DNA of 64,000 bases from Candidatus Kerfeldbacteria bacterium. GTDB taxonomy: Bacteria; Patescibacteriota; Patescibacteriia; SBBC01; CAIJZX01. The notes beneath the pieces are model-generated. The model had not been told where the DNA came from, searched no databases, and was given only the letters and a program-made list of their open reading frames with translations. The DNA is taken from positions 1,708-65,707 of the forward strand of contig JACPSJ010000004.1 in NCBI GenBank assembly GCA_016193315.1. Reading direction: 5' to 3'. Every line of letters begins with the position of its first letter. Positions within the stretch are counted from its first letter, which is position 1. The translations under genes and the position numbers were made by a program. This document shows positions 1-43,977 of the stretch, one piece after another.

Positions 1-3000
1 GATGGATTGCTGGAAAAGTCGTTATTGACTTGAATCGCCCCGCCGGCGGTGTAAGTATACCCGCCGCTGATGGTCGGGCTGAAAGTAAGATTGTAGTAGC
101 CATTCGTGCCGCCGGTACCGGTCAGCGACGTAATCGTCGTGTTGAACCCGCCGGTGCCGATGTATTCAACTGTGCCAGTCGAATAGGTGAAGGTTCCGCT
201 GACGGTGAAGACTGTACTATTCCCGGTCAGCGTCAGCGTGTTGGCACCATTTGCATCCAGTTCATGCGAGAGCGCGACCGTGACGGCGGTCGCTGAGACG
301 GACGAACCGAGCCGGATTTCCGGACTGGCAGAACCGCCACTGATTGAAATCCTGCCGAGGTCTTGTTTCGTCGTCGGGTTATTATCGGTCCACGTTTTGA
401 ATCCACTCGTGCTCCAAGTAATCGTATTGCTCCCATTTGTATAGGTCATCTGGTTCGAACAGGTCGCCGCGCAAACCGTGACGTTGCCTTTGAGCGTCAT
501 GGTGGGATTGTTCGTGCTGGCCGTGATGACAGTTGAAGCCGCGTTGCTATTCCCGCCAAGGTTCAAATCGCCATCAACCGCGATGGTCTGGCTGGCGGCG
601 GTGCCGAGGGTGTGCGTCACGGACGCCCCGCCCGGGTAGACATTCAAATTGTAATATGTGATGTCACCGGCAATGTTGGTGGCGCCGTTGCCGGTGTAGG
701 TAATGGTTCCATTCTGGTGGGTGTAGGTGCCGGTTTCCACCAATGGGGTGCCGGTCCCGCTGAGCGTATACGTTTCGCCGCCGGCGTTGAGGACGTGGCT
801 GGCGGTAATCGTCATGACGCCAGTGACGGTGATGTTACCAGCGCCGTTGCTGCCGGTGGTCGTTTCCGCCGTGCCGTTGCCGAAGGTCAGGCCGGAAAAA
901 GTCCAATTCGAGGACGAACCGCCCCAGTTACCGGTGCCGCGAAGTGTAAACGTCCCGCCGGTCAGGTTAATCATGCCGTTGCCCGTCGCGTCTCCACCCA
1001 GGACATCGATATTGGCGGTCCCTGACAGCGTGCCAGCAGTCATAGTCAAATCGACGTCAATGGTCGTGGCGTCCGCAAACGACCAGCCGCCACCGGTACC
1101 GTTATACGTGACGTTGTCAAAATTCTCGCCGCCATCGGTGACGGTATGACCGGTGGCGGTGGCCGTAAACGTCGTGGTTTGTGGATTCGTCTTGTTGAAC
1201 GTTCCCTCGTTGTTGAAATCGCCGCCGACGGAAAGGGCATTCGTAGCCATCGTTAGCACGCCAGTACCGTCGATGTGAATATCGCCGTCCTTGACCGTAT
1301 CGGTGCCGTCGTTGGAAACGTCGGTCGTCACCGTCCCGCCAGGAGTAAACGTGTCACCGGTCCAAACATGAAGCTCAATGCCGTCATCAACGACCAAGGT
1401 GTCGGGCGCGGCATCTTCGGCGTCGTAAAGCATGTTCGGAGCGTCCTGGTCGTTGTCGTAATCGTCCATATTGACGATCGCCAGCGGCCCGGCATTTTCA
1501 TGTCTGGCGGTCAGCGTATTGACGTAGAGGTCAATGCCGGCGTCATTGGTGGCGTCGCTGGTGTAGACTACGTTGCCTTTCTGCGAAGTCGTCAGATAGA
1601 GATAGACGGAGCTGCCCGATTCAACGTAGGTGTTAATCGAGAAAGTGGCGTCCGCGCCGGAACACGATCCGGTGTCGGTCGTCAACAGCGTCCCGGCGTC
1701 GTAGACTTTGATCGTCAGCTCGCTGGCGCCGTTGCACGGTCCCCCGTTGCCGACGGTCCCGGCGGTGGATTCATCGGATTTGAAGACCGTGCCGGCGACC
1801 GAGATCGGACAGCCAGTCTTAACCCAATTCGCCCCGACGTTGCTGAAGGTGCTGCTGTAGGTGGTGATCGTCGGCGTCGAGGTCATGTCGGTGACGTTTA
1901 GGTCATTGAGCGTGTACGTCCCCGCCCCCAACCAGTTTCGTTGCGTGCCGCCGACGGTCGAGGTAATGGCGATCTCGTCAGCTTCGCTGCAGGCCGTGGT
2001 GGTGCCCTGCAGCACGGCGGTCCCGGCATTATCGAACGTGCCGCCGAGGATGATGTCGCCGGTCGAAGTGTTGCTCCATTTGCCGGGCGAGGCGCCGCCT
2101 TCGATCACCACCGCGGCTGAACCTTGGGCGCGCACGTTAAGGGTTCCCTGGATCAGCTCGCCATCGGCGATGGTCAGCGTGTTGGTCACCCGGATGCCGT
2201 TCGTATCGAGGGTCAGGTTATCGTTCGCGTCGGACGCGTCGCTTTTATCAATCTTGAGGTTGTAGAAATTCTGGGTCGTACAGGTGGAAACATTGGTACA
2301 CCCCGAATCGAGTGTGACTGATGTGGCCCCATCAAACGTCACCGTTCCGGTTCCTTCGTTCAGTGTCCCGAGATTGGTCCAAGCCCCAGAAACGGCAAAG
2401 GATTGTGTTGATGAAGCAGTCAATGTATTGTTTGTTTCGATGGTTACATCGACGGCATCGATCGGATGGTCATTTGACGTGTCGTTATCAAGAACGACGA
2501 GTGCGGTCGTACCGTCACCGATTGACAGGATGCTGTCAACCTTGATGGTTGAACCGGTACCGGCATTCATTGAAATTGTCTTGGTGGTGGCCGCGACTGA
2601 ATTCGAAAAATTGAGATCGCTAAAAGTCCAGGTATTCGTGCCGGAACTGGCGCCGAAATTTTGATTGGCGGAGACTCGTTGTTGGAATGACCCGCCAGTC
2701 ATGGTAATAGTTCCGGCGCCGGTCACGTTTCCCTTGGCCGTGACATTATTTGATCCGTTGAGCGTGCCCGTAACGGTCAGGGTATTGTTGACCGTCAGCG
2801 CTGAAGCCACGGTCGTCGTCCCGCTTGATTGCGTCAGGGCATAGACCGTGGTCAGTGCGCCCCCGCCAAGGTTTCCTGTCCCTGACATGGTCAGCGTACC
2901 AGTTCCGGCATCAGTCGTGATTGAACCCGTGCCCGTCGACGTAAACGCACCGCCGTTGACCGTCGCCGTTGCGTTGACTTTGTACGTCGCACCGGTCGAG

Positions 3001-6000
3001 ACCGCGATGTCGCCGGTAACGGTGATGGTCTGGCCCTGGGTGAAGGTTCCGCCGGTAACCGCCACGTCGCCTTGGATCGAAGCGGTGTCGCCGAGTGACA
3101 CCGTGCCGCCGGAAACGGTAAAGCTAGAGAGACTGTTCCCTCCCGAGGTCAGCGTTTTTGAGGTGCCATTCATCACCAGCGTGGCGGCCGCGACGTAATA
3201 GACGCGCAGTTCGGGATCGTTGGCCGAATCGACTGAGGCAAAGCTGCCCGGGTCGTTGGCGGCGCCGTTGTGCCGCACGCCAAAGGCGATGATGTCGTCG
3301 CCGTCGGGCAGGGACGCCTCAACGTTGGCGTCGGCGGTTGTGCCAAGATCGTACAATTTCCAGCCGGTGGTCGTGTGATCGGTGACCGTCAGCAGGGTTG
3401 AGTTTTCCGCCAGCTTTTCGTACAGACTGCTGCCGGCCGAGGTGCAGGAGATGGTGTCAGGCGAATCGCTATTGACCGTGAACAAATCAAGGCTGTTCGC
3501 AGTCGTCGCAATCACGTTTAATCTCAGCTCGGTGTTCACCACTTTGGCCGTATTGGGGACGGTCGTCAGACTGAATTTCATCGCGTCCCGATAGTATTTG
3601 TCGTCGCTCGGGCCGCAACTTCCGAGTTCTACTGAAGTCAGTAAAGTGGCATCCGTCCCCGCCTCACAACTATACGTGGTGCCAATGATCTCGCACAGGC
3701 CGTCCAGGTCGACGGTTCGAACGGCGGTGATATCCCAGCTCGGCGTGAGGGTTTTGACCCCCTCGGCGTAGATACCGCTGGTCAGATCGACATTGCCGCT
3801 GACCGTCCAGCTATTCGTGCCGGCCAGGATAATTTCGTCACCTGCCGCGCCGCCAGTGAAATCCAGGTCGCCGGTGATGCTGACCGTTGGGTCGTTGGTA
3901 TCAGCATCAACGGTCAAGTCGCCGGTGTTGGCCGCGTTGAGCGTGAAATTGGAAGAGAAGCTGGGTGATCCGGCGTTGCCGGCGACCGTTCGGTCCGAAG
4001 TTGAGTTGCTGTAGACCTCGACCGTGCCGCCGTAGGGCGCGCCGGAGGTCCGGGTCCCGATGGTCTGGTCGTTGTTGGTGGCGTCGAAGCGCATGTTGGC
4101 GGTCAACACGCCGCTGGTCGGGAAGGCGGTTGCCGACTGGTAGACAAATAGACCCGAACCGGAATGCGCGATGGTGCCGTTCAGCGTTAGCGTCGCGCCG
4201 CTATGCGTTAGTGTGACGGATGCGAGGGTAATCACATCACTAGTATCAACATTCAGGGTTCCGGTCACGGTCGGATTGTTGGTTTGGATCGTGAAGCCCC
4301 CGGACCCATCCGAACCGGCAAAGGTGACGTTGGAAAAACTCGAGCTACCGGATTCAACCGTGTTGCCGCTGTCGGGCGCGTCAAACGTCAATGTTCCGGC
4401 GCCGGCCGTAAACAGATCATTGTTGTCCCAGTTCCCGCCGACGGTGATGTTGTTGCCGTTGGCGTCAAACGTGCCGTCCGTAATCGTGACATTATCATTC
4501 GCATCGAAGGCCGTGGTCAGCTGGAAAGTTACTTCCTGGGCGCCATCGTTGAAGATCACGCCATAAAAATCCGGGGCGGCCAGCCCGCGGGCGTCGATGG
4601 TCTTGGTGCCGGCGGCCGTGGCGTCGAAGGTGACGGTGCTGGTGCTGATCGTGAACGTATCGTCATTGTCCCAGTTCCCGCCGACGTTCAGATTATTGCC
4701 GTTGGCGTCGAGGGTGCCGCCGGTGATGGTGACGTTATTGTTGGCGTCAAAGGCGGTGGTCAGTTGGAAGGTGGCGGTTCCGCCGGCATCATTGAAGGTC
4801 ACGGCGTAGAAGTCCGGGGCGGCCAACCCGCGGGCATCAATCGTTTTGGTGCCGGAGGCGGCGTCGAAGGTGACGGTCGAGGTGCCGATGGTAAACGTCC
4901 CGTCGTTATCCCAGTTGCCGGCCAGATCGATGTTGTAGTTCGACCCGGTCACGTCGAGGGTCGCGCCGCTGGCGATCGTCAGGTTTCCTTCCAGGCCGTT
5001 GGTGCCGGTCATGTTGGCCGTCAGGTTATACGTTTCGCTACCAGCTAATTCCAGGCTGGCATAGGTCGTACCGCCGCTGTCCGAGGCCACGCTGATTGCG
5101 CCTCCGCTGTTCGTAGCGGAGTACTTAACTGTTGAACTCGTATTCGGCGTCAACGTGCCGGTGATCGTCAGGACGGTCGCCGTCGCGCCGGCGTTGGCCA
5201 GGGTGAGGGTGTAGCCGCTGTTGGCGAGATCAAGCGTGTCGCCGGTTTGGATATCCGCCGTATCCACGGTCATCGACGAAGCCAAGGTGACTTTGTCGTT
5301 GGCGCCGACGCCGCTGGTTTTATTGAAGACGACGGCGCCGATATTTTGCGGCGTCGAGGTTGAATCCGTGTACGTCGCGGCCGTCGTGCCGTCGAACGTC
5401 CAGGTGCCGGTGCCTTTGGTTACAAACGCGCTGGCGCCGATGGTCACGTCGCCGGCGGTGTTGACGGTCGGGTTGCCGGAATTGAGGATCAAATCGCCGT
5501 TGGTGATGTTGAAATTCCCGTCAACATTCAGGGCACCGGCACCGGCGATAGTGACATTGTCATCTGAGCCATCGGTGCCAGTGTTGTTCAGGGTGACATG
5601 GTAAAAGGCTGAGGTTCCGGTATTGAACGTTTGCGGGTCGCTGCCGTTGAAGGTCAGGGTGCTCGTGCTTGAGGTAAATGTCCCATCGTCGACAAAGTTA
5701 CCCGCCACGTAAATAAAGTTGTTATCCGTGGTAAAGGTCGAGGTATCAAATTTCAGATGGTGGGTGGTGACATCGGCGCCACCGCCAGAGCCAGGCCGGT
5801 ACGTATCTCCGTACATGATGTACAGCTGCTCGGTCTTGTTCGCCTCTTGGTCGACGGTCAGGTCGTTCGTGGCCACGCCGTAAATAACATCCTCATCGTT
5901 GGTATTGGTGTAGTCGTCGAGATCGGTATTGGCGATAGTTTGATCGCTGTTGTCGCTGTCGACACCAGTCCCAATGACCAGTTGCGATTGGTACAGTTGG

Positions 6001-9000
6001 ACAACGTCAACATTCCCCCCATCCCCGTCGTACTTCGTGACTGTCGTGGCTTCTTCGCTCTCGGTCGCCTCGCCGTTGATGAAGAAAATCATGGTCGCGC
6101 CGCTCGACGGCTTGTTGATCGTAAACGACCAAGCGCCGTCGACATCGGCGGCACTGGCGCTTTGGGGCACCCCATTGACCGCGACTTTGATTTCGTTCGC
6201 GCCATCGTCGGTGCAGGCTGTGATTTCGGTTTCGTCGGTGAAGCAACCGCCGCTGACCGTGATCGTCAGCACGGTCGTCAAACTCGGGTAGGTGCAGGTC
6301 GCGGTCGCGCAGTCATTGCTGCCGTCGTTATCCTGTTCTCGAAGCACGGCGCCATTTTGGTCGATATCGAACATGCGGAAATAGTAGGTCGTCCCTTGCG
6401 CGGCCGAGTTGGCTTCAACCGAAAATTCCAGCTCCCGCAGCTGGAGAGCGCTTTGATCCATGTTGCCGCAGTTGGCCGGGCAGGCGGCGTCTTTATCAAG
6501 CGTCCACCAACCGGCGGTCGGGCTGCCGCTCAGCGTGGTGCCGGCCAGTGCCGTATTATCATTGCAGACCGAACTGCCGCCGTTACAGTCGACGTACCGC
6601 CAGATCCCGCCGCCGGTCGGATCGTCAACGTCGGTCCAAGTGGCCGAGGTGGAATCGGGATCGTTGGTCGTGTATTGCAGCTTCTTGCGGGCGTCGGTCT
6701 GCCCCTCGCCGGAAAGCTCGGCCACCGAGAAGCGGAGTCGGAATTTCCCGGCCGCGTAGTCGAAGTCGGTCGGCACGGTGTTCTCGTTCGCCAGTTGAGT
6801 CGTCGGCGTGTCGGTCGTGTCCGCGCCGTCGAAGAATTTCCAGTTCCGCGACCAGGCCGAATACGGAATGTACTCGAAGGTGGCCGGGCGTGAATTATAG
6901 ATCGTGTTGTCGCCGGCGGCGCCGGAAATGTCCGTTTCCAAAGCGCAAGCGGCCGTGCTCTCCCAGGCCGACCCGCTCCAGTGCTGGGCCATCAAGTTGC
7001 GGTCGATGTCCGCCACCAGCAGCATGAGGTCGTCGCTGTTCGGCGAACGGAAGATGCGGTTGAACAGGGCGTCGTCGCCGGTACAGGTGGCCATGGTCGT
7101 GTCGATTGACGAGAAGGTGCAGCCGGTGCCGTTGCAGGTGGCGGTCTGATACTCCGGATCGGGCGCGCCGGCCGCGTTCTGCGCCGCCCACATGGCGACG
7201 GAATCGCCGCCGGCGTTGAATGTTTCCCAGATAACGTCGGTGTACTCCGGGCCGACCTCCTGGTTTTCCAGCGTGGCGTCTTCGTTGCCCATCGTCCAGC
7301 CGGCGGTCGAGCCGTCCGCCTTCCAAATCCCGAAGTTGCCGTCATTGAGGCTGTCGTTCGAGGCCCAGGCGATGCGATTTGATTTCGGATCGCGGGCCAG
7401 ATTCACTCCCTGCACGACCCCGTCTCCTCCGACCAGGGCCGGGCCGGTTTGCTCGCCGCCCCACGAGCCGGTGTAGAGTTGATACTTCGTTGACCCGGCG
7501 GACGTCGTGCCCCAGGCCACCAGCGCGTTCCCCGAATTGGTTTCCCAGGCCACGTCGAACACGCTGCCCTTCTCCAAGCCGAGCGTCGATGCATTCGTGG
7601 TCGAGGTAATGTTGGTGACCGTCCCCCAGGCCGAGCCGGACCAGATGGCGGCATCGACTTCGTGCGTGCCGGAGACGTCGACCGAAACGCCCAACAAAAT
7701 TTCATTCGAGTTCGGCTTCGCCTTCAACGAAACGAACGTCGGCCGGCCGTTCGAGGACAGCGTGATGTCGTTCGAACCGGTGGTGGCCGCGCAGTTGGAA
7801 ACCGGCCCCCAGTTCGCGCCGTCCCAATAGCAATAGAACAGCTTCTGGTTGTCGACGACCGTGCCGGCGTCCTGGCTGTCGGCGGAATAAACGACCATCG
7901 CCCGACCGGCCAGCGATTCGTAGTCGAGGTCGAAGGTCCGGGTGCAGTCGGCTTCGGTCCCGGAACAGGTCATGGCCGGATTGGCGTTAACGACGTTCCA
8001 GGCGGCGGCGAAATCCCCGGCCGCGTCCGAACCGTTCGTGCCGCGAACAGCGTCGAGCCGACCGTCTTCCTTAAGGTGAGCGATGATGATCTCGTCCCTG
8101 GTCGGCGCCGCCTTGGCCACGATGAAGGCGATGCGGCTGGACGATGACGTGGCGCTGCCAACGATCTCACCGCCGAAACTGAAGGTTGAGGTCAGAACCT
8201 GGGCATTGACTTGGCCAAGGCTCGTCACGTCGCCGTATAGCAGGCGACCATTGTTAGCGACCGCGTCCGACGCCAACTGCCACTGCCGCGGTTCCTGGTA
8301 GAGCGAGGCGGCCGTGAAGCTGCCGCCGATGCGCAACGGCCCGGTGCGAAACAGGGCCGGCGACACGTCCGGCGCATCGAACGTGTAGGACAGAAAGTAG
8401 GTTTCTCCTTTCGACCATTTCACTTCCCACTCGACCAGCTGGGACCGGCGGTCGTCAGGGGAGGCGCGGGTTTGCCCCTCCGGCAGCAATTTGCTGATGG
8501 CGAAATCGCGGGGCACGGTTTCTTGCACGGTGCCGATGTAGTCGCGGCGCGGCGTGACCGCAATCCGGACCGAGTAGTCGGCGACCGGGTAAATCCGAGT
8601 CGGATAGGTGGCGCGGTGGACATCGAAGGGAACGGCTTCCTCGACCGTAAAATTATCTTCCAGTACCCGCCGCCCAAAATCCGTGTCGGCTTCGAGACGC
8701 AGGTGGTAGACGCCCTGACGCTCGACCTTGAACATGGCGGCGTAGTCTGGCTTGTAGGTCACGCCTTTATCGACGCAGTCCGGATTCTTGGAAATAGTAT
8801 CGTCCGAGGTGCGGTACCGTTTCATCCGGCCGTCAGGGTCGGTGACCGCTAGGGTCAGATCGGCGTTGCAGATGGTGCGACCGTCGTCATCGAGAACGGC
8901 CATCGCCGCTACCTGTTCCTGGCCGAGCTGCGGCGTGGCCCGGGTGACGTTGAGGGCCACCACCCCCCACAGGAACTCTTTCTCGATCGTGGCCTCGGCC

Positions 9001-10286
9001 CCGTCGCTACGGACCATGGTCACTCGCAGGCGGTATTTGCCGGCGTGGAGCGAACCCATGTCGAGGTAGAGCGTCGAATCAAGGTCGTCTCCAGCCGGCG
9101 TATCCACCGCCCGGTAGGATACTGTCTGCTCCCGACCGCTGGCGTCAATCAACCGCAACCGTTCCAGCTCCCATCGCTCTTCGCCGGTGCGAAAAAAGAG
9201 GAAGCGGTTGACTTTCCGTTTCGGCACGGTCATCACCGGCTGCTCAACCGATCGGTACAATCGCTTCGACAAGGCCACCAGCCTCTCCAACCTCTGTTTC
9301 GCTTCCCGTTCTTCGGGCGTCAGCGCGGCTGAGGGCCGGCTGACTTCGGCTTCGATGCGCATGCCATCGAGGTGAATAACCGTCGGCGGAAGGCGAGGCG
9401 CAAATTCTAGGCGCAGCCGAAAGCGAGCCTGCCGGAGATCCTCGACGCGGCGAATGTCCGGCAGGTTGACCCGCCAATACTCGGCCGGGGGATCGTTCGC
9501 GGCCCGGGCCGCCAGGAGTTGCCACGGTCCGCCATTCAGGCTGGATTCCAGAATCACTGAATCGGTGCTGTCAGCCGCGCCGCTGCTGGTCAACGATAGT
9601 TCAGCGGTCGCGCCTGATACCTGCTCCTGGCCGCTGAGACCAGGGGCCAGAAACCGGCGACATAGCACATCTGGATTTGGTGTCTCCAGGCTCCCAGTCA
9701 GAATGCCAGTGCCCTGTCCAAGCGAGCCCTGCAAGAACAACCGGTCGCTACGGATGATGGCTGAGTTTTGGGGATTGAACGAACTGCGGCTACTGCCTGG
9801 ATTCAAATCAATGACTATGGCCCTCGACTCACCGACCCAGCCATGGCAGGATTCTGGGAGAAACGTCAGCTTGGATGGATCGCTACCGGCTTTGGCAATG
9901 GCCACCACCGACAGCCCGAACACCCCAACCACGATCGTGGTCAACGCCACCCCCCAAGCGCGACGGAAAACGGCACGCATCGGGCGCGCCCGATCGGGAG
10001 AGTTCCGGGGTTGCTGCCAGTGCGCTCGCACTGCCAACCGCTCGTAGCGGCGATCGCGCCGCGGGCCGATCCGCACCGCACGCAAGATCCCCCGCCGGTC
10101 CCAATCGCGGAGTGTGTTCGGGTGAACGCCAAGCAGTCTGGCCGTCAGGCGGAGACCAAGCAACCCGGGTAAATGCTCCCAGTCGGGTGGGGATGATTCC
10201 TGACCGGGCGGCAAACTCGTCTCCTCTAATGCCGAGAAGAGCCAGCGCGGTCGAGCTTTGGCTAATCGTTTTTGTGTTTTTCTCAT
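1..10286 (-). CDS. giant surface/secreted repeat protein, partial (3' end beyond window start; >3,428 codons). N-terminal excisionase/MerR-type HTH, then one TM helix, then huge beta-rich repeat ectodomain.
   Basis: Minus-strand ATG is the reverse complement of 10284-10286. I hand-translated the first ~300 codons (MRKTQKRLAKARPRWLFSALEE...LGLRLTARLLGVHPNTLRDWDRRGILRAVRIGPRRDRRYERLAV...MRAVFRRAWGVALTTIVVGVFGLSVVAIAKAGSDPSK...) and the last ~20 codons at the window edge; both read cleanly. None of the listed ORFs on either strand across 1-10,286 falls in this frame, consistent with one stop-free reading frame. All other-frame ORFs here are short, low-complexity antisense artefacts. An alternative internal start (ATG at 9980) would give a signal-peptide-like N-terminus. 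Confidence 0.6.
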   Translation of the reverse strand, partial: MRKTQKRLAKARPRWLFSALEETSLPPGQESSPPDWEHLPGLLGLRLTARLLGVHPNTLRDWDRRGILRAVRIGPRRDRRYERLAVRAHWQQPRNSPDRARPMRAVFRRAWGVALTTIVVGVFGLSVVAIAKAGSDPSKLTFLPESCHGWVGESRAIVIDLNPGSSRSSFNPQNSAIIRSDRLFLQGSLGQGTGILTGSLETPNPDVLCRRFLAPGLSGQEQVSGATAELSLTSSGAADSTDSVILESSLNGGPWQLLAARAANDPPAEYWRVNLPDIRRVEDLRQARFRLRLEFAPRLPPTVIHLDGMRIEAEVSRPSAALTPEEREAKQRLERLVALSKRLYRSVEQPVMTVPKRKVNRFLFFRTGEERWELERLRLIDASGREQTVSYRAVDTPAGDDLDSTLYLDMGSLHAGKYRLRVTMVRSDGAEATIEKEFLWGVVALNVTRATPQLGQEQVAAMAVLDDDGRTICNADLTLAVTDPDGRMKRYRTSDDTISKNPDCVDKGVTYKPDYAAMFKVERQGVYHLRLEADTDFGRRVLEDNFTVEEAVPFDVHRATYPTRIYPVADYSVRIAVTPRRDYIGTVQETVPRDFAISKLLPEGQTRASPDDRRSQLVEWEVKWSKGETYFLSYTFDAPDVSPALFRTGPLRIGGSFTAASLYQEPRQWQLASDAVANNGRLLYGDVTSLGQVNAQVLTSTFSFGGEIVGSATSSSSRIAFIVAKAAPTRDEIIIAHLKEDGRLDAVRGTNGSDAAGDFAAAWNVVNANPAMTCSGTEADCTRTFDLDYESLAGRAMVVYSADSQDAGTVVDNQKLFYCYWDGANWGPVSNCAATTGSNDITLSSNGRPTFVSLKAKPNSNEILLGVSVDVSGTHEVDAAIWSGSAWGTVTNITSTTNASTLGLEKGSVFDVAWETNSGNALVAWGTTSAGSTKYQLYTGSWGGEQTGPALVGGDGVVQGVNLARDPKSNRIAWASNDSLNDGNFGIWKADGSTAGWTMGNEDATLENQEVGPEYTDVIWETFNAGGDSVAMWAAQNAAGAPDPEYQTATCNGTGCTFSSIDTTMATCTGDDALFNRIFRSPNSDDLMLLVADIDRNLMAQHWSGSAWESTAACALETDISGAAGDNTIYNSRPATFEYIPYSAWSRNWKFFDGADTTDTPTTQLANENTVPTDFDYAAGKFRLRFSVAELSGEGQTDARKKLQYTTNDPDSTSATWTDVDDPTGGGIWRYVDCNGGSSVCNDNTALAGTTLSGSPTAGWWTLDKDAACPANCGNMDQSALQLRELEFSVEANSAAQGTTYYFRMFDIDQNGAVLREQDNDGSNDCATATCTYPSLTTVLTITVSGGCFTDETEITACTDDGANEIKVAVNGVPQSASAADVDGAWSFTINKPSSGATMIFFINGEATESEEATTVTKYDGDGGNVDVVQLYQSQLVIGTGVDSDNSDQTIANTDLDDYTNTNDEDVIYGVATNDLTVDQEANKTEQLYIMYGDTYRPGSGGGADVTTHHLKFDTSTFTTDNNFIYVAGNFVDDGTFTSSTSTLTFNGSDPQTFNTGTSAFYHVTLNNTGTDGSDDNVTIAGAGALNVDGNFNITNGDLILNSGNPTVNTAGDVTIGASAFVTKGTGTWTFDGTTAATYTDSTSTPQNIGAVVFNKTSGVGANDKVTLASSMTVDTADIQTGDTLDLANSGYTLTLANAGATATVLTITGTLTPNTSSTVKYSATNSGGAISVASDSGGTTYASLELAGSETYNLTANMTGTNGLEGNLTIASGATLDVTGSNYNIDLAGNWDNDGTFTIGTSTVTFDAASGTKTIDARGLAAPDFYAVTFNDAGGTATFQLTTAFDANNNVTITGGTLDANGNNLNVGGNWDNDDTFTISTSTVTFDATAAGTKTIDARGLAAPDFYGVIFNDGAQEVTFQLTTAFDANDNVTITDGTFDANGNNITVGGNWDNNDLFTAGAGTLTFDAPDSGNTVESGSSSFSNVTFAGSDGSGGFTIQTNNPTVTGTLNVDTSDVITLASVTLTHSGATLTLNGTIAHSGSGLFVYQSATAFPTSGVLTANMRFDATNNDQTIGTRTSGAPYGGTVEVYSNSTSDRTVAGNAGSPSFSSNFTLNAANTGDLTVDADTNDPTVSITGDLDFTGGAAGDEIILAGTNSWTVSGNVDLTSGIYAEGVKTLTPSWDITAVRTVDLDGLCEIIGTTYSCEAGTDATLLTSVELGSCGPSDDKYYRDAMKFSLTTVPNTAKVVNTELRLNVIATTANSLDLFTVNSDSPDTISCTSAGSSLYEKLAENSTLLTVTDHTTTGWKLYDLGTTADANVEASLPDGDDIIAFGVRHNGAANDPGSFASVDSANDPELRVYYVAAATLVMNGTSKTLTSGGNSLSSFTVSGGTVSLGDTASIQGDVAVTGGTFTQGQTITVTGDIAVSTGATYKVNATATVNGGAFTSTGTGSITTDAGTGTLTMSGTGNLGGGALTTVYALTQSSGTTTVASALTVNNTLTVTGTLNGSNNVTAKGNVTGAGTITMTGGSFQQRVSANQNFGASSGTNTWTFSDLNFSNSVAATTKTISMNAGTGSTIKVDSILSIGDGTTALVVLDNDTSNDHPIDAVDVTIETNNTLTASSTQSFAVSGAWTNLGTLNEGTGTVTFDGATSVTLDSGCTNVSTCTTQNFYNLKIDKSDASDANDNLTLDTNGIRVTNTLTIADGELIQGTLNVRAQGSAAVVIEGGASPGKWSNTSTGDIILGGTFDNAGTAVLQGTTTACSEADEIAITSTVGGTQRNWLGAGTYTLNDLNVTDMTSTPTITTYSSTFSNVGANWVKTGCPISVAGTVFKSDESTAGTVGNGGPCNGASELTIKVYDAGTLLTTDTGSCSGADATFSINTYVESGSSVYLYLTTSQKGNVVYTSDATNDAGIDLYVNTLTARHENAGPLAIVNMDDYDNDQDAPNMLYDAEDAAPDTLVVDDGIELHVWTGDTFTPGGTVTTDVSNDGTDTVKDGDIHIDGTGVLTMATNALSVGGDFNNEGTFNKTNPQTTTFTATATGHTVTDGGENFDNVTYNGTGGGWSFADATTIDVDLTMTAGTLSGTANIDVLGGDATGNGMINLTGGTFTLRGTGNWGGSSSNWTFSGLTFGNGTAETTTGSNGAGNITVTGVMTITASHVLNAGGETYTLSGTGTPLVETGTYTHQNGTITYTGNGATNIAGDITYYNLNVYPGGASVTHTLGTAASQTIAVDGDLNLGGNSNAASTVITASTNNPTMTLKGNVTVCAATCSNQMTYTNGSNTITWSTSGFKTWTDNNPTTKQDLGRISISGGSASPEIRLGSSVSATAVTVALSHELDANGANTLTLTGNSTVFTVSGTFTYSTGTVEYIGTGGFNTTITSLTGTGGTNGYYNLTFSPTISGGYTYTAGGAIQVNNDFSSNP
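4330..5050. repeat. intragenic tandem DNA repeat, period ~240-253 bp, at least 3 copies, inside the giant gene
   Basis: Near-identical blocks recur: ccggggcggcc at 4571 and 4814; gtcccagttcccgccgacg at 4425 and 4678, with atcccagttgccggcc at 4918. On the coding (minus) strand these give an ~80-aa unit with ...TFDANGNN-ITVGGNWDN... beta-helix-like motifs. Confidence 0.7.
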
Positions 10287-10489
10287 CTAAAGACTTATTG
10301 CATTGTACCACAAAATATCGATTTGGTCAAATCGAATTGAAACCTGATTCTTGGCTAACCTCAAACGAGCGGTGGGCTCAAGTTACCAATGGCTACGAAT
10401 GAGAAGTCGTGTACTCGCTGCCGAGTTCATGCGTCGCCCAACCGCGGCCCAGATCTTGCCAGGTCGAGCCGGGACGGACAAAACATTCA

Positions 10490-10518
10490 TTGTCCGGCCC
10501 CAAGAAAAAGCCTATACT
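10490..10518 (+). promoter_or_regulatory. sigma70-like promoter TTGTCC-N17-TATACT upstream of the LCP gene
   Basis: -35 hexamer at 10490-10495, 17-nt spacer, -10 TATACT at 10513-10518. The extended module gcctatacttctgac is also found upstream of dprA. Confidence 0.45.
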
Positions 10519-10529
10519 TCTGACTATCC

Positions 10530-12113
10530 GTGCGAACAGGCGCGGAGGTTCTGCCAACCATGTCAAGACCTCAACTTACGTCGACGAATTCTACGAATAC
10601 GGCCCAGCCGAGTCCGGCCACAACTCAAGTCCCCAAGCGCCATCACCGACTGCGCTGGACGCTGCTGACCGTCGGCGGGCTGCTGGCGGTCTTCATGATC
10701 GTCGCCGGCTGGCTGATTTACCGCGCCATTAGCATCGTCAATACGAGAAAACTCGACGGTTCCAGCGACAAGCTGTCGTTTTTCCAGCAGCTGACGCACC
10801 TCGTCGCCTCCTCGGACCAGCAGCTCCAAGGTGAACGGGAAGACCGGATCAATATCCTGCTCCTCGGCATCGGCGGCCCCGGTCATGAGGGACCGTACTT
10901 GACCGATACGATGATGGTGGCCAGCATCAAACCGTCGACTAAGCAGGTCGCGCTGCTGTCGATTCCGCGGGACCTGGTCGTCAACATTCCCGGTTATGAC
11001 TATCGCAAGATCAACAACGTCCTGGCCATCGGTCGCGAGCGGCACTATCCCGGCGGGGGCGACGCCTTGGCGGTCAAAGTGGTTAGTAGCACCCTCGACC
11101 TGCCGATTCAGTACTATGCCCGGATTGACTTCCGCGGTTTCGAGGAGATTATCGACCGCCTCGGCGGCATCAAGGTCGACGTCGCTCGAGCCTTCACTGA
11201 CCGGGAATACCCAACTACTAATTTTGGTTACCAGGCCATCCGTTTTAACGCTGGCTCGCAGACGATGAATGGTGACGCGGCTCTGAAATACGCCCGCTCA
11301 CGCCACGGGAACAATGGTGAAGGATCAGACTTCGCCCGGGCCGCCCGGCAGCAAAAAATCTTGCTGGCCACGCGAGACAAAGCGCTCAGCCTGGGCACCA
11401 TCATCAATCCGAAGAAGGTCGCCGACATCCTCGGCAGTCTCGGGGCCCATCACCAAACGAACCTGGAGGTGTGGGAAATGATTCGGCTCGCCAAGCTGGT
11501 CGGCGATGTCAACCAGGACACGGTGATCACGAAAGTGCTTGACAACAGTCCGACCGGGCTGCTGACCGCCGCGGTCGGGCAAGCCGGGGCCTACATCTTG
11601 GTGCCGAAAGACGACGGTCTGGGCGATATCAGGTTCCTAGCCCACCAGATCTTCCTGATCGGCCTGGCCGAGCGTGAACAGGTGACGGTGGTGGTGGCCA
11701 ACGCCACCCGCCTGACTGGATTGGCCGATGCGACTACCAAACGATTGGCTGGTTTCGGCATTACCGTGGCTTCACCCCTGTCCATCCGCGGCGCCACGAT
11801 CGGGCGGACCGTTCTCCTCGATCGTAGTCAGGGCCAAGCGGCCAAGACAATTGAACTTGTCGGCCTGTACGCCCGGGCTCAAGGCTCCATCAGCCTGGCC
11901 GAGTGGCAACAACAAACTGGCGATGAGACGCTAGCCGCCGCGTTGCAAACAGTGAACACCCCCGGCGAAGCCGGGTCCGGCTTGCCCGGCTCCCGCCGTG
12001 GCTCAGCCGGAAACACGCCGGTCAACGCTCCGCCCACCAAAACGGTGGTGCTCATTTTGGGGCAAGATCAACAGTCACAGGCTGCGGCCCGTCTCGACAA
12101 CAACCAGTCCTGA
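10530..12113 (+). CDS. LytR-CpsA-Psr (LCP) family cell-wall glycopolymer ligase, N-terminal TM anchor
   Basis: Listed ORF. TM segment LLTVGGLLAVFMIVAGWLIY, then LCP core (...NILLLGIGGPGHEGPYLTDTMMVASIKP...LLSIPRDLVVNIPGY...) and a LytR_C-like tail. First ATG at 10560 (MSRPQLTS) is the likelier start. Confidence 0.85.
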   Translation: MRTGAEVLPTMSRPQLTSTNSTNTAQPSPATTQVPKRHHRLRWTLLTVGGLLAVFMIVAGWLIYRAISIVNTRKLDGSSDKLSFFQQLTHLVASSDQQLQGEREDRINILLLGIGGPGHEGPYLTDTMMVASIKPSTKQVALLSIPRDLVVNIPGYDYRKINNVLAIGRERHYPGGGDALAVKVVSSTLDLPIQYYARIDFRGFEEIIDRLGGIKVDVARAFTDREYPTTNFGYQAIRFNAGSQTMNGDAALKYARSRHGNNGEGSDFARAARQQKILLATRDKALSLGTIINPKKVADILGSLGAHHQTNLEVWEMIRLAKLVGDVNQDTVITKVLDNSPTGLLTAAVGQAGAYILVPKDDGLGDIRFLAHQIFLIGLAEREQVTVVVANATRLTGLADATTKRLAGFGITVASPLSIRGATIGRTVLLDRSQGQAAKTIELVGLYARAQGSISLAEWQQQTGDETLAAALQTVNTPGEAGSGLPGSRRGSAGNTPVNAPPTKTVVLILGQDQQSQAAARLDNNQS

Positions 12114-22424: not shown

Positions 22425-23333
22425 TCATCCTCCGCGGAGACGACTGAGAAGGTGCTGGAATTCCTCGTCGGAGTAAAACTCGATACTAACTGAGCCGCGG
22501 TGCTCCCGCTTGGTGATTTTCACTTTGGTCCCAAAACGTGACCGCAGTTCGTCTTCAATGGCGCGCACAGTTGGATCGATCACGCGCCGGAGATGACGAC
22601 GGACAGTCGTTTGCTGACCCAGGTGAGCGGCCGCTCGGACCGGCAGCTGCTGTTTGAGAATTTGATCGAAGAGTCGCTGTCGTTCCTCGGGTGTAATGGC
22701 CGTCAAAAGTATTTTCGCATGGCTGGCCGTAATCGTGCCTTGCCGCAGCGCCTGCTGCATGGCCGACGGTAAGGCTAGTAACCGGACCGCATTCGCAATG
22801 GTTGTGCGGCGCTTGCCTACTTGGCGGGCGATCTCATCTTGGGTCAAGCCAAACTCCTCGCTCAGCTGCTGGTAGGCCAACGCTTCCTCAATTGGGTTCA
22901 GATCCTGACGCTGGACATTCTCGACAATCGCTAATTCCAGCTTCTCCTGCTCCCGCGATTCGCGGATGATGGCCGGCACCGCCGCCAGCCCCAGCCGCTC
23001 GGCCGCCCGCAGGCGCCGCTCGCCCGCAATCAGTTGGTACCGATCGCCAACCCAGCTGACCACCAGCGGCTGGATGATGCCGTGTTGCCGAATGGAATCA
23101 ACCAGCTCGTCGAGCGTTTCATCGTGTGTACGACGACGAGGTTGGTGCGGGTTCGGATCGATCAGCTGCGGCGGGATGTCGAACAGCCGTGATCGATCGG
23201 GCCGATCGGTGCTGGTGGCAGTCGTGGTAGCTGGGGGCGGCTTGGCTGGTAGAACCGGTGGTGGCGTGGCCACCGCTGACTTGCGTGGGATCAGCGAGCT
23301 GAGGCCGCGGCCGAGTGGTCGTTCAGATATCAT
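22425..23333 (-). CDS. parB: chromosome partitioning protein ParB/Spo0J
   Basis: ParB box GIIQPLVV...YQLIAGERRLRAAERLGL, an HTH and a C-terminal dimerisation region. Confidence 0.9.
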   Translation of the reverse strand: MISERPLGRGLSSLIPRKSAVATPPPVLPAKPPPATTTATSTDRPDRSRLFDIPPQLIDPNPHQPRRRTHDETLDELVDSIRQHGIIQPLVVSWVGDRYQLIAGERRLRAAERLGLAAVPAIIRESREQEKLELAIVENVQRQDLNPIEEALAYQQLSEEFGLTQDEIARQVGKRRTTIANAVRLLALPSAMQQALRQGTITASHAKILLTAITPEERQRLFDQILKQQLPVRAAAHLGQQTTVRRHLRRVIDPTVRAIEDELRSRFGTKVKITKREHRGSVSIEFYSDEEFQHLLSRLRGG

Positions 23334-24097
23334 CGCGGCGTGCTGTGAATCTCGTCCGCGAGCTTGCGGTAGGCCTTGGCGCCGGGTGAGTTGGGGTCGT
23401 AGTGAAGGATCGGCTGACCGTAGGATGGCGCTTCGGCCAAGCGCACGTGCCGCGGGATGACCGAGCGAAAAATCTGGTGGGGTGGAAAGTAGTGGTACAA
23501 TTCAGCCAGCACCGCCTCGGCCAACCGGAGGTCGGGATCGTACATGGTCAGAACCAAGCCCAGAATACTCAATTCATCATGCAGGTTCTGTCTGACCAAG
23601 TCGATCGTCTCCATCAGCTGGCCCAATCCTTCCAGCGAGTAATATTCCGCTTGCACTGGGATGAGGACTTCGTCGGCCGCCGCCAAGGCGTTGATCGTTA
23701 GCACCCCGAGCGACGGCGGACAGTCGATAAAAACATAGTCGTAATCATTGAGGATCTCCTCCAGGTTATCACGGAGCAAGAATTCACGTCGCTCCAGCGG
23801 GACGAGTTCGACGTTGGCACCAGCCAAGGACAGCGTGGCTGGTACCAAGTGGTACCGTTCGATGTTGGTCGGGTGAATGACCTCGCGGATCGACACTGGC
23901 GAGACGAGCATTTCATACACGCCCTGGGTCAAGTTCTTATGATCCAGACCCAAACCGCTGGTGGCATTGGCCTGCGGGTCGAGATCAATCAGCAACACCC
24001 GATGCCCGGCCCGTGCCAGGTACGCGCCGAGGTTGATGGCGGTAGTCGTCTTGCCGACTCCGCCTTTCTGGTTGACCACCGCAATAATGCGCGCCAT
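23330..24097 (-). CDS. parA: ParA/Soj partition ATPase
   Basis: MARIIAVVNQKGGVGKTTTAINL deviant Walker A. Likely start ATG at 24097; the listed ORF extends to 24283 through a non-homologous leader. Confidence 0.9.
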   Translation of the reverse strand: MARIIAVVNQKGGVGKTTTAINLGAYLARAGHRVLLIDLDPQANATSGLGLDHKNLTQGVYEMLVSPVSIREVIHPTNIERYHLVPATLSLAGANVELVPLERREFLLRDNLEEILNDYDYVFIDCPPSLGVLTINALAAADEVLIPVQAEYYSLEGLGQLMETIDLVRQNLHDELSILGLVLTMYDPDLRLAEAVLAELYHYFPPHQIFRSVIPRHVRLAEAPSYGQPILHYDPNSPGAKAYRKLADEIHSTPR

Positions 24098-24197
24098 AGA
24101 GTGTCTGGACTGGATGAGTATACAATTTTCTCGACCGCTCGACAACTTGGTGCGTTGACAACCAGCCGCTCGTTGACTACACTGCATACTGATCTCC

Positions 24198-24281
24198 TGC
24201 CGCCGTGGTGGAACTGGCAGACACGCAGGACTCAAAATCCTGTGGGGGCAACCCCATGTCGGTTCGATTCCGACCGGCGGC
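24198..24281 (+). tRNA. tRNA-Leu(CAA), type II, long variable arm, no encoded CCA
   Basis: Hand-folded. Acceptor gccgccg/cggcggc, anticodon stem cagga/tcctg with loop CTCAAAA, variable arm gggggcaacccc, T-loop TTCGATT. Confidence 0.85.
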
Positions 24282-24332
24282 ACATCCTAAAACGGGTGCG
24301 TCGACATCAAGTAACAATGCTATACTCCTCCC

Positions 24333-26253: not shown

Positions 26254-26661
26254 GTGACTGGAATCAAAACCGTCACCATCAAGCAGGGCGCAATGATGCC
26301 CGGCACGCCGCACGAAGTTTTTGAGTTGTGGATGGACAGCACCAAGCATGCTGCTTTCACCGGCGGCGAGGCGAAGATCAGCCGTCAGGTCGGCGGCTCG
26401 TTCACCGTCTTCGACGGCTGGGCGACCGGCAAGAATGTGAAACTGGTGCCAGACACAACCATTGTTCAAACCTGGCGGGCCGACGATTGGCCAGCCGGCC
26501 ATTTTTCAACTATCACTGTCAGCCTGATCAAAGCCCCGAATGGCACGAAGTTTCTGTTCACTCAGACGGATGTGCCAGCCAGCAAAGCCAAGGACATCGC
26601 CCAGGGATGGCGTGATTACTATTGGGCGCCATTGAAAGCCGCCTTAGCCAAACCGAGTTAG
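26254..26661 (+). CDS. SRPBCC/AHSA1-domain protein (activator-of-Hsp90-ATPase homolog-like)
   Basis: MTGIKTVTIKQGAMMPGTPHEVFELWMDSTKHAAFTGGEAKI...; GTG start. Confidence 0.7.
   Translation: MTGIKTVTIKQGAMMPGTPHEVFELWMDSTKHAAFTGGEAKISRQVGGSFTVFDGWATGKNVKLVPDTTIVQTWRADDWPAGHFSTITVSLIKAPNGTKFLFTQTDVPASKAKDIAQGWRDYYWAPLKAALAKPS
26263..26312 (+). repeat. 50-bp perfect direct repeat, right copy (start of the intact SRPBCC gene)
   Basis: See left copy. Confidence 0.85.
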
Positions 26662-36760: not shown

Positions 36761-37132
36761 TCAGTGATGGCCCAGGGCTTGCTGGACCGCTTCTAAACTC
36801 AACGTGGCGCATCTTAGTCGCGCCGGGTTCACCTCGACGCCGAGAAGTTTCAGTACGTCGTCCTTCGTCAACTTCTCTGATTCAGCCCGCGACAGACCCT
36901 TGATTTTTTCAGACAGCATTGAGGCGCTGGCTATCGAGATGGTGCAACCTTGGCCGGTGAACTTGACCGCGGCGATTTTTTCTTGCTCATCAAACTTCAG
37001 AAAAAAATCCAACTCATCGCCGCAGAGAGGATTGGCCACGTGGGCATGATGTTGCGCGCCAAGAAGTGGTCCGAAGTTTCTTGGGTATTTATAGTGATCC
37101 AGAATATTTTGCTGATACATCGCTAGCGACAT
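36761..37132 (-). CDS. sufU: SufU/IscU-type Fe-S assembly scaffold / sulfur acceptor
   Basis: ...NPLCGDELDF...GQGCTISIAS...LRCATLS... Cys/His ligand pattern. Confidence 0.85.
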   Translation of the reverse strand: MSLAMYQQNILDHYKYPRNFGPLLGAQHHAHVANPLCGDELDFFLKFDEQEKIAAVKFTGQGCTISIASASMLSEKIKGLSRAESEKLTKDDVLKLLGVEVNPARLRCATLSLEAVQQALGHH

Positions 37133-37181
37133 AGCTCGTTTTCTTTATTCCTCCCCCGCCTGGGGGGGTGGGGGTGGTGGG

Positions 37182-38522: not shown

Positions 38523-38524
38523 GG

Positions 38525-38911
38525 TTAGCGATAAACTATTTCAACGACTATCTTGTCAGGGTCTTCGAAATAAAGGGCATAGTAATTCTTAGAATATTGT
38601 GGAAACCTCTTGGGGCCGCCGTAAAGATAAGATAGTTTATGCTTCAAAACAAACTTCTGTAAGAAGGCATCAACTTGCTTAGCGCTCGAAACCCTAAGCG
38701 CCAGATGATGTAGCCCCTTGCCACGTCGGCGATACCTTTGACCTCTAAATTTCTTATCGATTTGAAAAATCCACAGGTCGATCGTTCCGGCATTGACCCC
38801 GAACCATGTCCGACCCGAATCGATTGTTTTGAATTGCAAAAACTTGCATAGTTTTCTGTAAAACTTAAGATCAGAAGTGTTGAGTTGAAGGTGATACGCG
38901 CTGGCTTTCAT
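38525..38911 (-). CDS. VOC/glyoxalase-bleomycin-resistance family protein; markedly lower GC than its neighbours
   Basis: Listed ORF, wedged between sufD (4-bp overlap) and sufS (2-nt gap); visibly AT-rich codon usage. Confidence 0.65.
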   Translation of the reverse strand: MKASAYHLQLNTSDLKFYRKLCKFLQFKTIDSGRTWFGVNAGTIDLWIFQIDKKFRGQRYRRRGKGLHHLALRVSSAKQVDAFLQKFVLKHKLSYLYGGPKRFPQYSKNYYALYFEDPDKIVVEIVYR

Positions 38912-39534: not shown

Positions 39535-39767
39535 CCCCGATGGTTCCAGAGACCCCTCGCCCGCGGCTCGGGGAAACGTATTCCTGAACGCAGCGGAGTC
39601 GCGTCGGACGCGGCGGAGCGGAGTGAAGGATCTCTGGTGCCAGAAGGCTCCTTAGTGTATGAGGGATAAATCACCATTCAATATCACCGACCAAGACAAT
39701 TTCCCGCTGCCGCGGCCCTCTAGGATATCGACATATCCCTGTCGGGTAGTGATTGTTAGTTCCATAA

Positions 39768-40199: not shown

Positions 40200-40225
40200 A
40201 AATCCTGAGTTATTGATTTGAAATA

Positions 40226-42566: not shown

Positions 42567-42738
42567 GTATTCCTGAGCGTGAGCGAAGGATCTCTGGAAA
42601 CGTAAACGCGGATTGTTGGCAAGCGTCCTTTAGCCACCGGCATATCCGGTTTTTTCTAATTCCACCGCCAACTCCGGTCCGTCCCCTCCTCTGATGAGGC
42701 GGGGTGGCCCGACGCGCTTCGCCGTCGGGACAGGGTGG

Positions 42739-43958: not shown

Positions 43959-43977
43959 AACTTGTAGTTAGGGTCAC

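Follow-up and report, generated by a model that had tools for sequence, protein, structure and literature searches.

A MerR-like winged helix-turn-helix ahead of a signal-peptide-like helix in a giant surface protein of Candidatus Kerfeldbacteria

Transmembrane transcription regulators (TTRs) have been surveyed with 50,302 cases reported, 56% of them single-pass, and the main text of this survey makes no mention of MerR-type, Patescibacteria, excisionase or signal-peptide cases (PMC10269533). In the ToxR/CadC/TcpP type, a cytoplasmic N-terminal DNA-binding domain of the OmpR/PhoB type is followed by one helix and a small extracytoplasmic sensor domain. Long signal peptides are found in the serine-rich repeat adhesins of Gram-positives (~90 amino acids, aa) and, with the ESPR, in autotransporters. 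Candidate phyla radiation (CPR) bacteria, or Patescibacteria, are ultrasmall, live attached to other cells and have few recognisable regulators; the giant proteins on their surface, which are costly to make, are leading candidates for a role in attaching to the host. Here we describe a giant gene on a stretch of 64,000 nucleotides (nt) from contig JACPSJ010000004.1 of Candidatus Kerfeldbacteria (GCA_016193315.1), referred to as the window, beyond which the 3' end of the gene is located. Its product begins with a genuine MerR-like winged helix-turn-helix (wHTH; HTH, helix-turn-helix), which is conserved and forms a translated part of this protein, followed by a single hydrophobic helix that by its alignment is homologous to the h/c-region of cleavable signal peptides. 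We lean towards the reading that an autoregulatory wHTH of ~60 aa and of the BldC/Xis type has been inserted into the signal-peptide n-region of a surface protein exported by Sec.

As encoded, the precursor shares with ToxR, CadC and TcpP the order of cytoplasmic DNA-binding domain, one helix and extracytoplasmic C-terminal part, and its candidate binding sites lie upstream of the promoter, as those of membrane-bound activators do. It differs in its DNA-binding domain, which is of the MerR/Xis/BldC type, in the surface protein of ~3,900 to >6,000 aa that takes the place of the small sensor domain, and in the conserved signal-peptidase motif of its helix with the homology to cleavable signal peptides. 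A preliminary description of this DNA had proposed a ToxR-like topology with a transmembrane (TM) helix; the single helix with the N-terminus inside is retained here for the precursor, but the helix is probably not a permanent anchor, as the small-x-small (AxA) motif and the signal-peptide homology suggest cleavage. The likeness to ToxR may be limited to the precursor and to a stub of ~131-133 aa. The same description did not recognise the combination as a described family, which agrees with the missing annotation and with our literature search. This search yielded neither a published giant protein of CPR bacteria that has an HTH at its N-terminus nor a bacterial signal peptide carrying a DNA-binding domain, both weak negatives given the incomplete coverage, and a preprint on giant genes of Omnitrophota reports C39 and S8 domains near the N-termini and no DNA-binding domain.

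The giant gene and its N-terminal wHTH

The stop-free minus-strand frame that had been reported for the first 10.3 kb, continuing off the window, was recovered in our translation (10286 to 1) as 3,428 codons with zero stops or frameshifts, so that no stop codon had been overlooked, and the peptides quoted at that time were all found in it (the HTH stretch at aa 42-86, ALTTIVVGVFGLSVVAIA at aa 114-131, and TFDANGNNITVGGNWDN). An exhaustive HMMER search identified an identical public protein (P0001, MBI2984867.1) of 3,998 aa, which takes the sequence beyond the window but is itself partial; its aa 1-3,428 equal the window translation, and GenBank labels it "hypothetical protein, partial" from Candidatus Kerfeldbacteria. 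The giant protein has a length of at least 3,998 aa, is unannotated and is encoded by a CPR/Patescibacteria genome. Single-sequence searches with aa 1-500 against a word-indexed protein database, GTDB genomes and metagenome contigs gave no hits, which reflects a limit of sensitivity and not absence, because the exhaustive search returned 2,513 family representatives that are at most 50% identical to each other. Among the top 150 representatives, which were examined further, 25 carry the HTH together with a single hydrophobic helix, with lengths of 343-6,524 aa. Judged by the predicted domain order, the placement of an HTH within an export signal is a recurrent and unannotated architecture of surface proteins of 2,000-6,500 aa.

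An in-frame TAG directly 5' of ATG 10286 makes an earlier start impossible. The preliminary description had also considered a start at the internal ATG 9980, with a classical signal peptide and the HTH as a fortuitous extension. Here the signal peptide stood and the rest fell: we place the start at ATG 10286, because codon 103, which corresponds to ATG 9980 (Met103, just before the hydrophobic helix), is not conserved and is missing in the alignment of orthologs L001 and L002, because the HTH is the best-conserved N-terminal segment in the syntenic orthologs, and because promoter and start codon at 10286 align across seven loci. Furthermore, in the syntenic loci L001-L003, where the orthologous giant gene is divergent from LytR, the tblastn alignments begin at query residue 2-5, and a K/R-rich N-terminus follows the start codon in all aligned orthologs.

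Public gene calls of five family members (P0013, P0029, P0048, P0079 and P0089) begin inside the HTH or inside the h-region, which indicates that automated annotation truncates their N-termini; P0013, for example, is annotated from MLRAVRLG, and its true start is a GTG. Such proteins will be misclassified or given a wrong start, and systematically so, by gene callers and by signal-peptide predictors that look no further than the first ~70 residues.

Sequence analysis establishes the identity of the N-terminal domain. A Pfam scan of aa 1-162 assigned MerR_1 to aa 49-92 with 25.3 bits (cutoff 21.6), and the same region reached MerR (26.4, cutoff 28.2) and HTH_17 (24.2, cutoff 27) below the cutoff; relatives of the HTH carry PF12728, PF00376 and PF13411. 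By sequence, the closest solved structures are the Xis of mycobacteriophage Pukovnik (4j2n), the MerR-type N-domain of CarA and BldC. A structure prediction of the N-terminus, which the preliminary description had suggested, yielded a high-confidence winged helix at aa 31-93: the AlphaFold2 (AF2) model, built with 94 homologs, has a predicted local distance difference test (pLDDT) score >92 over this region, and Foldseek matched it to Pukovnik Xis (4j2n, TM-score 0.85, 1.5 A, 40% identity) and BldC (6amk, TM-score 0.84), followed by RacA, gpNu1 and the N-domains of the MerR-family proteins NmlR, SoxR and CarH. These results bear out the HTH_17/excisionase/MerR-type DNA-binding pattern that had been read at this end of the protein. 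Across 24 representatives the HTH contains 15 invariant alignment columns, and its most conserved residues (VHPNTLRxWD...G.R.DRRY) are common to the small homologs and to MerR/BldC. Beyond the HTH, no Pfam or NCBIfam match was obtained across the 3,428 aa; the N-terminus has no Trans_reg_C (OmpR/PhoB-type) match in Pfam, and no second copy of this HTH is encoded within the window.

The domain is a minimal wHTH, with a 15-aa Arg-rich linker and then the helix directly after it, and with neither a dimerisation helix nor an effector domain. This is shared with BldC and the excisionases of phages and integrative conjugative elements (Xis, RdfS), which are the best structural and sequence matches and likewise have no coiled-coil or effector domain. 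However, these are free-standing, soluble proteins of ~55-70 aa, whereas the domain described here is predicted to be the N-terminus of an exported, membrane-tethered protein. MerR, CueR and SoxR have the N-terminal winged helix and the TLRxW..G.L...R....R.Y signature in common with the giant protein, but the classical MerR family has the dimerisation helix and the effector-binding domain that are missing here. With a K/R-rich N-terminus before it and a basic linker and one hydrophobic helix after it, the HTH should face the cytoplasm. Exactly between the HTH- and the helix-coding parts, at 9972-9990 (minus strand), the coding sequence contains a GC hairpin that resembles a terminator and has a weak T-run; as one hairpin was found in the region versus 1.5 expected by chance, it is probably meaningless.

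The hydrophobic helix and the upstream sites

A hydrophobic 19-mer occurs only once in all 3,998 aa. Family members without the HTH possess ordinary N-terminal signal peptides at the corresponding position, for example MKGRFRLLFVLSIVCIGLFSMGMVLA/AGNTT... (the slash marks the cut), which end in small-x-small (AxA) about equally far from the invariant C-x-G-W as in the HTH-bearing members. Both groups have Arg or Lys directly before the helix (RR or R), and the median net charge of the 12 residues preceding it is +3 in both. Every HTH-bearing representative (19/19) has [A/V]-x-[A/G] after the helix; the residue at -3 is Ala or Val in 19/19 and that at -1 is Ala in 18/19, and in 13/19 the motif is located exactly 14 aa before the invariant Cys. 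The chance of such a motif in a comparable stretch of these proteins is 0.23-0.34. A131 of the giant protein corresponds to a nearly invariant alignment column. The uncharged h+c stretch spans 22 aa in the window protein, with a median of 23-24 aa in HTH-bearing members (range 22-29) compared to 20 aa in HTH-less ones. Because the helix aligns with ordinary signal peptides and ends in an AxA motif at a fixed position (19/19), we infer that cleavage by signal peptidase is probable in this region. After cleavage, an HTH-membrane stub of ~131-133 aa would remain.

Short proteins of 93-169 aa (L071:5977-6357; P0159, P0160, P0162, P0163 and P0177) consist of the same HTH with one TM helix on its C-terminal side and hardly anything more; they are naturally occurring counterparts of the stub that cleavage is predicted to leave. 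Four HTH-less members (P0091, P0105, P0112 and P0118) have K/R-rich extensions of 50-90 aa without an HTH before an otherwise normal signal peptide, and long n-regions seem to be recurrent in this giant-protein family.

Upstream of the giant gene, a sigma-70-type promoter and two further elements form an array (Table 1). The promoter is kept in seven loci as TTGACn-17-nAnnnT with a -10 of the TAnAAT type, 13-19 nt before the start codon, and therefore the leader must be very short. To find shared elements, the 200 nt upstream of 15 HTH-bearing giant genes were searched for 8-mers de novo, and the top motif, TGGTAAGT with at most one mismatch, was present in 15/15 regions, compared to 8-10 for the best k-mer in shuffles. 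It lies on the coding strand, and its position relative to the start codon is -100 to -106 in the group of the window. In a more distant group of giant genes, tandem TGGTAAGT copies 9 nt apart are found at -48 to -88; tandem TGTTAAGT copies with this 9-nt spacing occur in L009, L010, L011 and L015, and the two sites of the window, TGGTAACT and TTAGCCAA, are spaced by 30 nt. In detail, the window and six further loci have the layout TG[GT]TAA[GC]T, 30 nt, TTAGC[CG], 28 nt (27 in one locus), TTGACn, 17 nt and the -10. The sequence between these elements is unconserved across the seven loci, and the proteins are only ~40% identical.

The motif is associated with the HTH. It is absent at one mismatch or less upstream of 3/3 HTH-less giant genes, the only three such loci inspected, and it precedes 38/62 small HTH genes, with a background of 0.16 per 200 nt. 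Of the HTH genes, 49/77 have it upstream versus 29/249 control genes from the same loci, i.e. it is five times as frequent, and this rules out the possibility that TGGTAAGT is merely a common extended -10 variant in these genomes. The window contains no exact TGGTAAGT match, and its one-mismatch matches are at background level. The BldC protomers bind 9-bp direct repeats head-to-tail (PMC5859096), and the 9-nt register of the direct repeats in the relatives of the giant gene fits this mode of binding and supports the upstream sites as the target of the HTH. We consider it likely that the HTH binds these putative sites. Their placement at ~-60 and ~-90 in the window resembles that of an activator site, and the overlap with the -10 and the transcription start site (TSS) in relatives resembles that of a repressor. 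The geometry differs from the classical MerR family, as the spacer is 17 bp in the seven loci versus 19-20 bp and the sites are located upstream of the -35 and not within the spacer.

An inverted repeat or RNA hairpin formed by TTGGTAAC...GTTAGCCAA was considered and rejected, since the 22 nt in between are unconserved and have no obvious compensatory pattern. As the promoter is moreover downstream of the element in the group of the window, we gave up the reading as an RNA leader and took the elements as DNA sites to which a protein binds. Rfam gave no RNA family in 10200-10700 (E<=1). The element TTAGCCAA has four copies in the window versus 0.78 expected: the copy at 10258-10265 (codons 8-10) is unconserved in orthologs, was rejected as a functional site and is taken as chance, and those at 26644-26651 and 50289-50296 fall inside unrelated open reading frames (ORFs).

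The recognition-helix pattern VHxNTLRxWD occurs at >568 metagenome loci. Among the best 80 of them, 66 encode stand-alone proteins of ~60 aa, 11 have the HTH fused to the N-terminus of a giant ORF, and one encodes a 126-aa protein of HTH and TM helix. The small HTH genes (66 loci among L016-L087, e.g. L021:5998-6180 and L053:5998-6180) are located 0-10 nt upstream of restriction-modification (R-M) or defence-like genes with methyltransferase (MTase), SNF2-helicase and C5-MTase signatures, and direct repeats, TTGTAAACT-AATGGTAAGTT or ATGTTAGCAA-ATGGTAAGTT, lie side by side over their -10/TSS region. The small proteins look like an analogue of the R-M controller (C) proteins with a BldC/Xis fold: they share with these the location directly upstream of R-M or defence genes and the repeats over their own -10/TSS, where the sites of autoregulators are placed. 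By analogy, the giant gene may use the autoregulatory logic of C proteins in cis. The C proteins differ in being Xre-type HTH dimers that act on inverted repeats, whereas a MerR/Xis-like fold and direct repeats are found here, and in the giant protein the regulated product is fused to the regulator.

Table 1. Features of the giant gene and its upstream region in the window; positions are those of the window
Feature	Positions	Strand	Basis or remark
Giant gene, 5' part, 3,428 codons	1..10286	-	Stop-free; identical to start of P0001/MBI2984867.1
Start codon ATG	10284..10286	-	In-frame TAG directly upstream; aligns with ATG/ATG/ATG/GTG of orthologs
aa 1-30, K/R-rich, poorly conserved	10197..10286	-	Alignment; low pLDDT in AF2 model
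aa 31-93, BldC/Xis-type MerR-like wHTH (beta-alpha-alpha-beta-beta-alpha)	10008..10196	-	Pfam, PDB sequence hits, AF2, Foldseek
aa 94-108, Arg-rich linker, proximal n-region	9963..10007	-	Sequence; fits positive-inside rule
aa 109-133, hydrophobic helix and c-region (AWGVALTTIVVGVFGLSVVAIAKA), signal-peptide-like or signal anchor	9888..9962	-	Aligns with signal peptides of HTH-less homologs; length 22-24 aa, median of HTH-less members 20 aa
aa 129-133, A-I-A-K-A, candidate signal peptidase I site (AIA/K or AKA/G)	9888..9902	-	Conserved [A/V]-x-[A/G]
aa 147-150, CHGW, invariant C-x-G-W, start of mature ectodomain	9837..9848	-	Invariant in three alignments; HTH-bearing and HTH-less
aa 134-692, conserved head: lectin/carbohydrate-binding-module-like N-terminal domain, then macroglobulin-like immunoglobulin (Ig) domains (beta-sandwich string)	8211..9887	-	
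aa ~1500-3428, T/G/N/D-rich beta-repeat region, stalk-like	1..5786	-	Sequence
Sigma-70-type promoter TTGACC-17-(TG)gTACAAT	10302..10330	-	10/12 matches and TG extension; -10 ends 15 nt before ATG
Upstream site 2, TTAGCCAA (TTAGCC), A-rich tract after it; ~-63 to -56 from inferred TSS	10351..10358	-	Invariant in 4-way alignment
Upstream site 1, TGGTAACT, TGGTAAGT-type (TGGTAAC); ~-93 to -86 from inferred TSS	10381..10388	-	Putative HTH binding site
LytR_cpsA_psr gene, divergent, shares the intergenic region	10530..12113	+	Pfam 5e-41; same arrangement in L001-L003 and L089

A possible mechanism and its rivals

According to the reading towards which we lean, translation would begin at ATG 10286 on a near-leaderless mRNA, and the HTH would emerge first and stay in the cytoplasm. 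The Arg-rich linker and the h-region (aa 109-131) would target the chain to the membrane with the N-terminus inside, and ~3,900 or more residues would be translocated. Signal peptidase I would cut, probably after A131 or A133, and free the mature protein, which may be kept on the wall via the C-terminal domain seen in relatives and accessory genes resembling a WxL cluster; the stub of HTH, linker and helix (~131-133 aa) would stay in the membrane. As precursor and/or as stub, the HTH is assumed to bind upstream of its own TSS, at the TGGTAAGT-type site (~90 bp) and at the TTAGCC site (~60 bp). One regulator molecule would then be made per exported giant protein, which would tie the production of the regulator to the transcription of the same gene. 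The locus may moreover be kept at the membrane by the tether (transertion), and such a tethering of a locus has been reported for VtrA/VtrB (PMC9977878).

With more reserve, and at somewhat less than even chances, we propose that the signal peptide itself is a transcription factor: the BldC-like stub, produced 1:1 with the exported protein, would bind the two-site array and couple export to transcription and/or keep the locus at the translocon. Intramembrane proteolysis might release the stub further, and the arrangement appears to be confined to CPR bacteria. A functional signal peptide of 98 aa is known from Rem/Env of mouse mammary tumour virus (MMTV; PMC5371415), and iRhom2 is cleaved by signal peptidase (PMC7618786). 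In both cases a long N-terminal extension is present and cleavage frees a fragment with a nucleic-acid-related or gene-regulatory role, as assumed here; these proteins are eukaryotic or viral, however, and in the giant protein the cleavage is a prediction. If cleavage and binding hold true, this would be a new bacterial way of coupling secretion to transcription, and a signal peptide acting as transcription factor would be a bacterial counterpart of the functional signal peptide of MMTV Rem. If the protein is uncleaved, it would be the largest and most unusual member of the TTRs. The giant HTH protein would thus count as a variant of the TTRs, and as a new mechanism if cleavage and autoregulation were both demonstrated. 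The candidate DNA target with its fixed promoter geometry makes autoregulation directly testable.

Several points weigh against a cleaved signal peptide with an autoregulatory wHTH. Every functional step of it is deduced from sequence, predicted structure and comparative genomics. The h-region begins at residue 109 and not within the first ~20-40 aa, whereas the HTH-less homologs have an N-terminal one; the h+c stretch is slightly longer in the presence of the HTH and thereby at the border between signal peptide and signal anchor, and no bacterial precedent for a folded extension of ~100 aa before a signal peptide was found in the literature. On the DNA side, TGnTAAGTT also fits an extended -10 and is possibly an upstream promoter in the group of the window, and the HTH-less giant gene of L091 has a loosely similar upstream element. 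Furthermore, the representatives are mutually related, so that the counts are not independent events, the comparison with HTH-less giant genes covers only three loci, and the motif-bearing small HTH loci were chosen by the recognition-helix pattern.

The closest rival is an uncleaved signal anchor, which would turn the protein into a bitopic regulator of the ToxR/CadC type with a giant ectodomain that senses, for example, host contact or mechanical load and signals possibly via regulated proteolysis. We regard it as rather unlikely, although the predicted topology with a single helix and the N-terminus inside agrees with it and an uncharged stretch of 22-29 aa, which exceeds that of the HTH-less homologs by ~4 aa, can span the membrane. 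The stand-alone proteins of HTH and TM helix mentioned above (L071, P0160, P0162, P0163 and P0177) furthermore indicate that a tethered form is viable, the sites at ~-60 and ~-90 resemble activator positions, and TTRs are common in general. However, the helix is followed by small residues at -3 and -1 in a fixed register (19/19) amid unconserved sequence, homologous ectodomains come with an ordinary cleavable signal peptide instead of an anchor, and the shared C-terminal domain together with WxLIP-like accessory genes gives another route of attachment; a known sensor or ligand-binding signalling domain was not found. An artefact, by which a separate small HTH gene became fused through a sequencing or assembly error, or by which the HTH is a fortuitous extension of a protein starting at ATG 9980, is effectively refuted already. 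This ATG does lie just before the hydrophobic helix, and stand-alone small HTH genes are very common in these genomes, but misassembly, extension and internal start are all excluded because the orthologs align from the N-terminus, promoter and start are kept upstream of the HTH with no stop or frameshift and an unconserved Met103, and the fusion is shared by at least 25 independent representative proteins and by at least 15 loci of different assemblies.

Other rivals accept the tethered HTH but not its target or its DNA binding. It is improbable, in our view, that the HTH binds elsewhere; the array would then be an extended -10 or belong to some other factor, and the HTH would serve, for example, as a RacA-like tether between nucleoid and membrane or act on other genes. 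RacA is among the structural matches, the giant gene is located ~12 kb from parAB, TGnTAAnTT has the key -10 bases T-12, A-11 and T-7, and the element upstream of the HTH-less L091 gene fits this explanation as well; on the other hand, it is difficult to reconcile with the fivefold preference of the motif for HTH genes over other genes in the same loci, with its absence from 3/3 HTH-less giant genes at one mismatch or less, with the background level of one-mismatch matches and the lack of an exact match in the window, and with the tandem 9-nt copies in relatives, which lie directly downstream of a separate consensus -10 and do not reflect usage as a -10. Even less probable is a domain that has lost DNA binding and serves export only, as an extended n-region that slows or targets the translocation of a very large substrate. 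In its favour, long extensions before the h-region do exist in other giant adhesins, i.e. in the serine-rich repeat and ESPR types, though without a folded DNA-binding domain, and in HTH-less relatives as the non-HTH K/R-rich extensions of P0091, P0105, P0112 and P0118. Against it, the model has an intact fold with high confidence, conservation is strongest in the residues common to the DNA-binding small homologs and MerR/BldC, a specific cis motif travels with the domain, and neither ESPR nor KxYKxGKxW was matched in the Pfam scan of aa 1-162 (E<=1).

Surface attachment and genomic surroundings

The giant adhesin-like ectodomain reported previously is supported by extracellular binding folds in the head, namely macroglobulin-like Ig and lectin-like domains. 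The T/G/N/D-rich repeat region has no Pfam or NCBIfam family match, and Tandem Repeats Finder detected a repeat of 243 nt (81 aa) at 4423-4920 with 2.1 copies and 78% matches. In complete family members neither a second hydrophobic helix nor LPXTG is present; those that carry the HTH and those that lack it have a C-terminal domain in common, which ends in ...TEAGxYSTxLTYVLTxTF. In three relatives (L089:22358-26260, L090:9746-12656 and L091:9951-12499) three genes follow the giant gene: one for a small secreted protein with the C-terminal domain of the giant protein, one for a protein of ~334 aa with a signal peptide, a WxLIP_PGBD-like match and a C-terminal TM helix, and one for a further surface protein with Big and dockerin. 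As there is no second TM helix or LPXTG, but a shared C-terminal domain and WxL-like neighbours, these features suggest a mature protein that is attached to the wall through its C-terminal end and accessory proteins, and an N-terminal helix that serves as export signal and is cleaved off.

WxL clusters are reported almost exclusively from Lactobacillales and Bacillales (Firmicutes) and comprise large WxL, small WxL and WxLIP proteins (PMC10599100). The layout in L089-L091, on which this comparison rests as the window does not reach that part of the locus, mirrors the order large WxL, small WxL, WxLIP. There are differences, however: WxLIP_PGBD remains below the threshold in 3/3 orthologs (22.9, 19.4 and 22.1 bits, i.e. 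19-23 bits versus 27.3), the motifs are Y-x-L and not W-x-L, and membership of the C-terminal domain in the WxL family is not supported, as 0/15 sequences match Pfam WxL at E<=10 and a PDB profile search gave no support. The C-terminal domain and the WxL-like layout are therefore an architectural resemblance only. The three-gene layout may be a distant CPR counterpart of the WxL clusters. A fragment homologous to the ectodomain head (P0274) is annotated from a metagenome-assembled genome (MAG) of Candidatus Aenigmarchaeota, a DPANN archaeon, which could reflect either an error in binning or surface modules that ultrasmall bacteria and archaea share.

The neighbours of the giant gene in the window are chromosomal housekeeping genes, i.e. 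LytR_cpsA_psr followed by Mfd, DprA, TopA, ParB/ParA, the SUF operon and others. For the LytR neighbour, a look-up of the exact sequence returned no record. Relatives of Mfd are found in a Candidatus Kerfeldbacteria MAG (70% identity) and in two MAGs with the same synteny that are labelled "Gammaproteobacteria". The latter, L002 and L003 (CAYGGC010000001.1 and CAYLHT010000002.1, titled "uncultured Gammaproteobacteria"), have 65-66% Mfd identity and the LytR-giant synteny, and their taxonomic labels look wrong. The longest ORF of ParA at 23330-24283 (minus strand, GTG start) overlaps a tRNA-Leu at 24199-24283 (plus strand), and its Pfam match begins at residue ~64; the true start is probably downstream of the GTG. 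Finally, the GC content dips from ~0.60 to ~0.51 over 37000-44000, where the SUF operon (SufS, SufD, SufB and SufC) is located.

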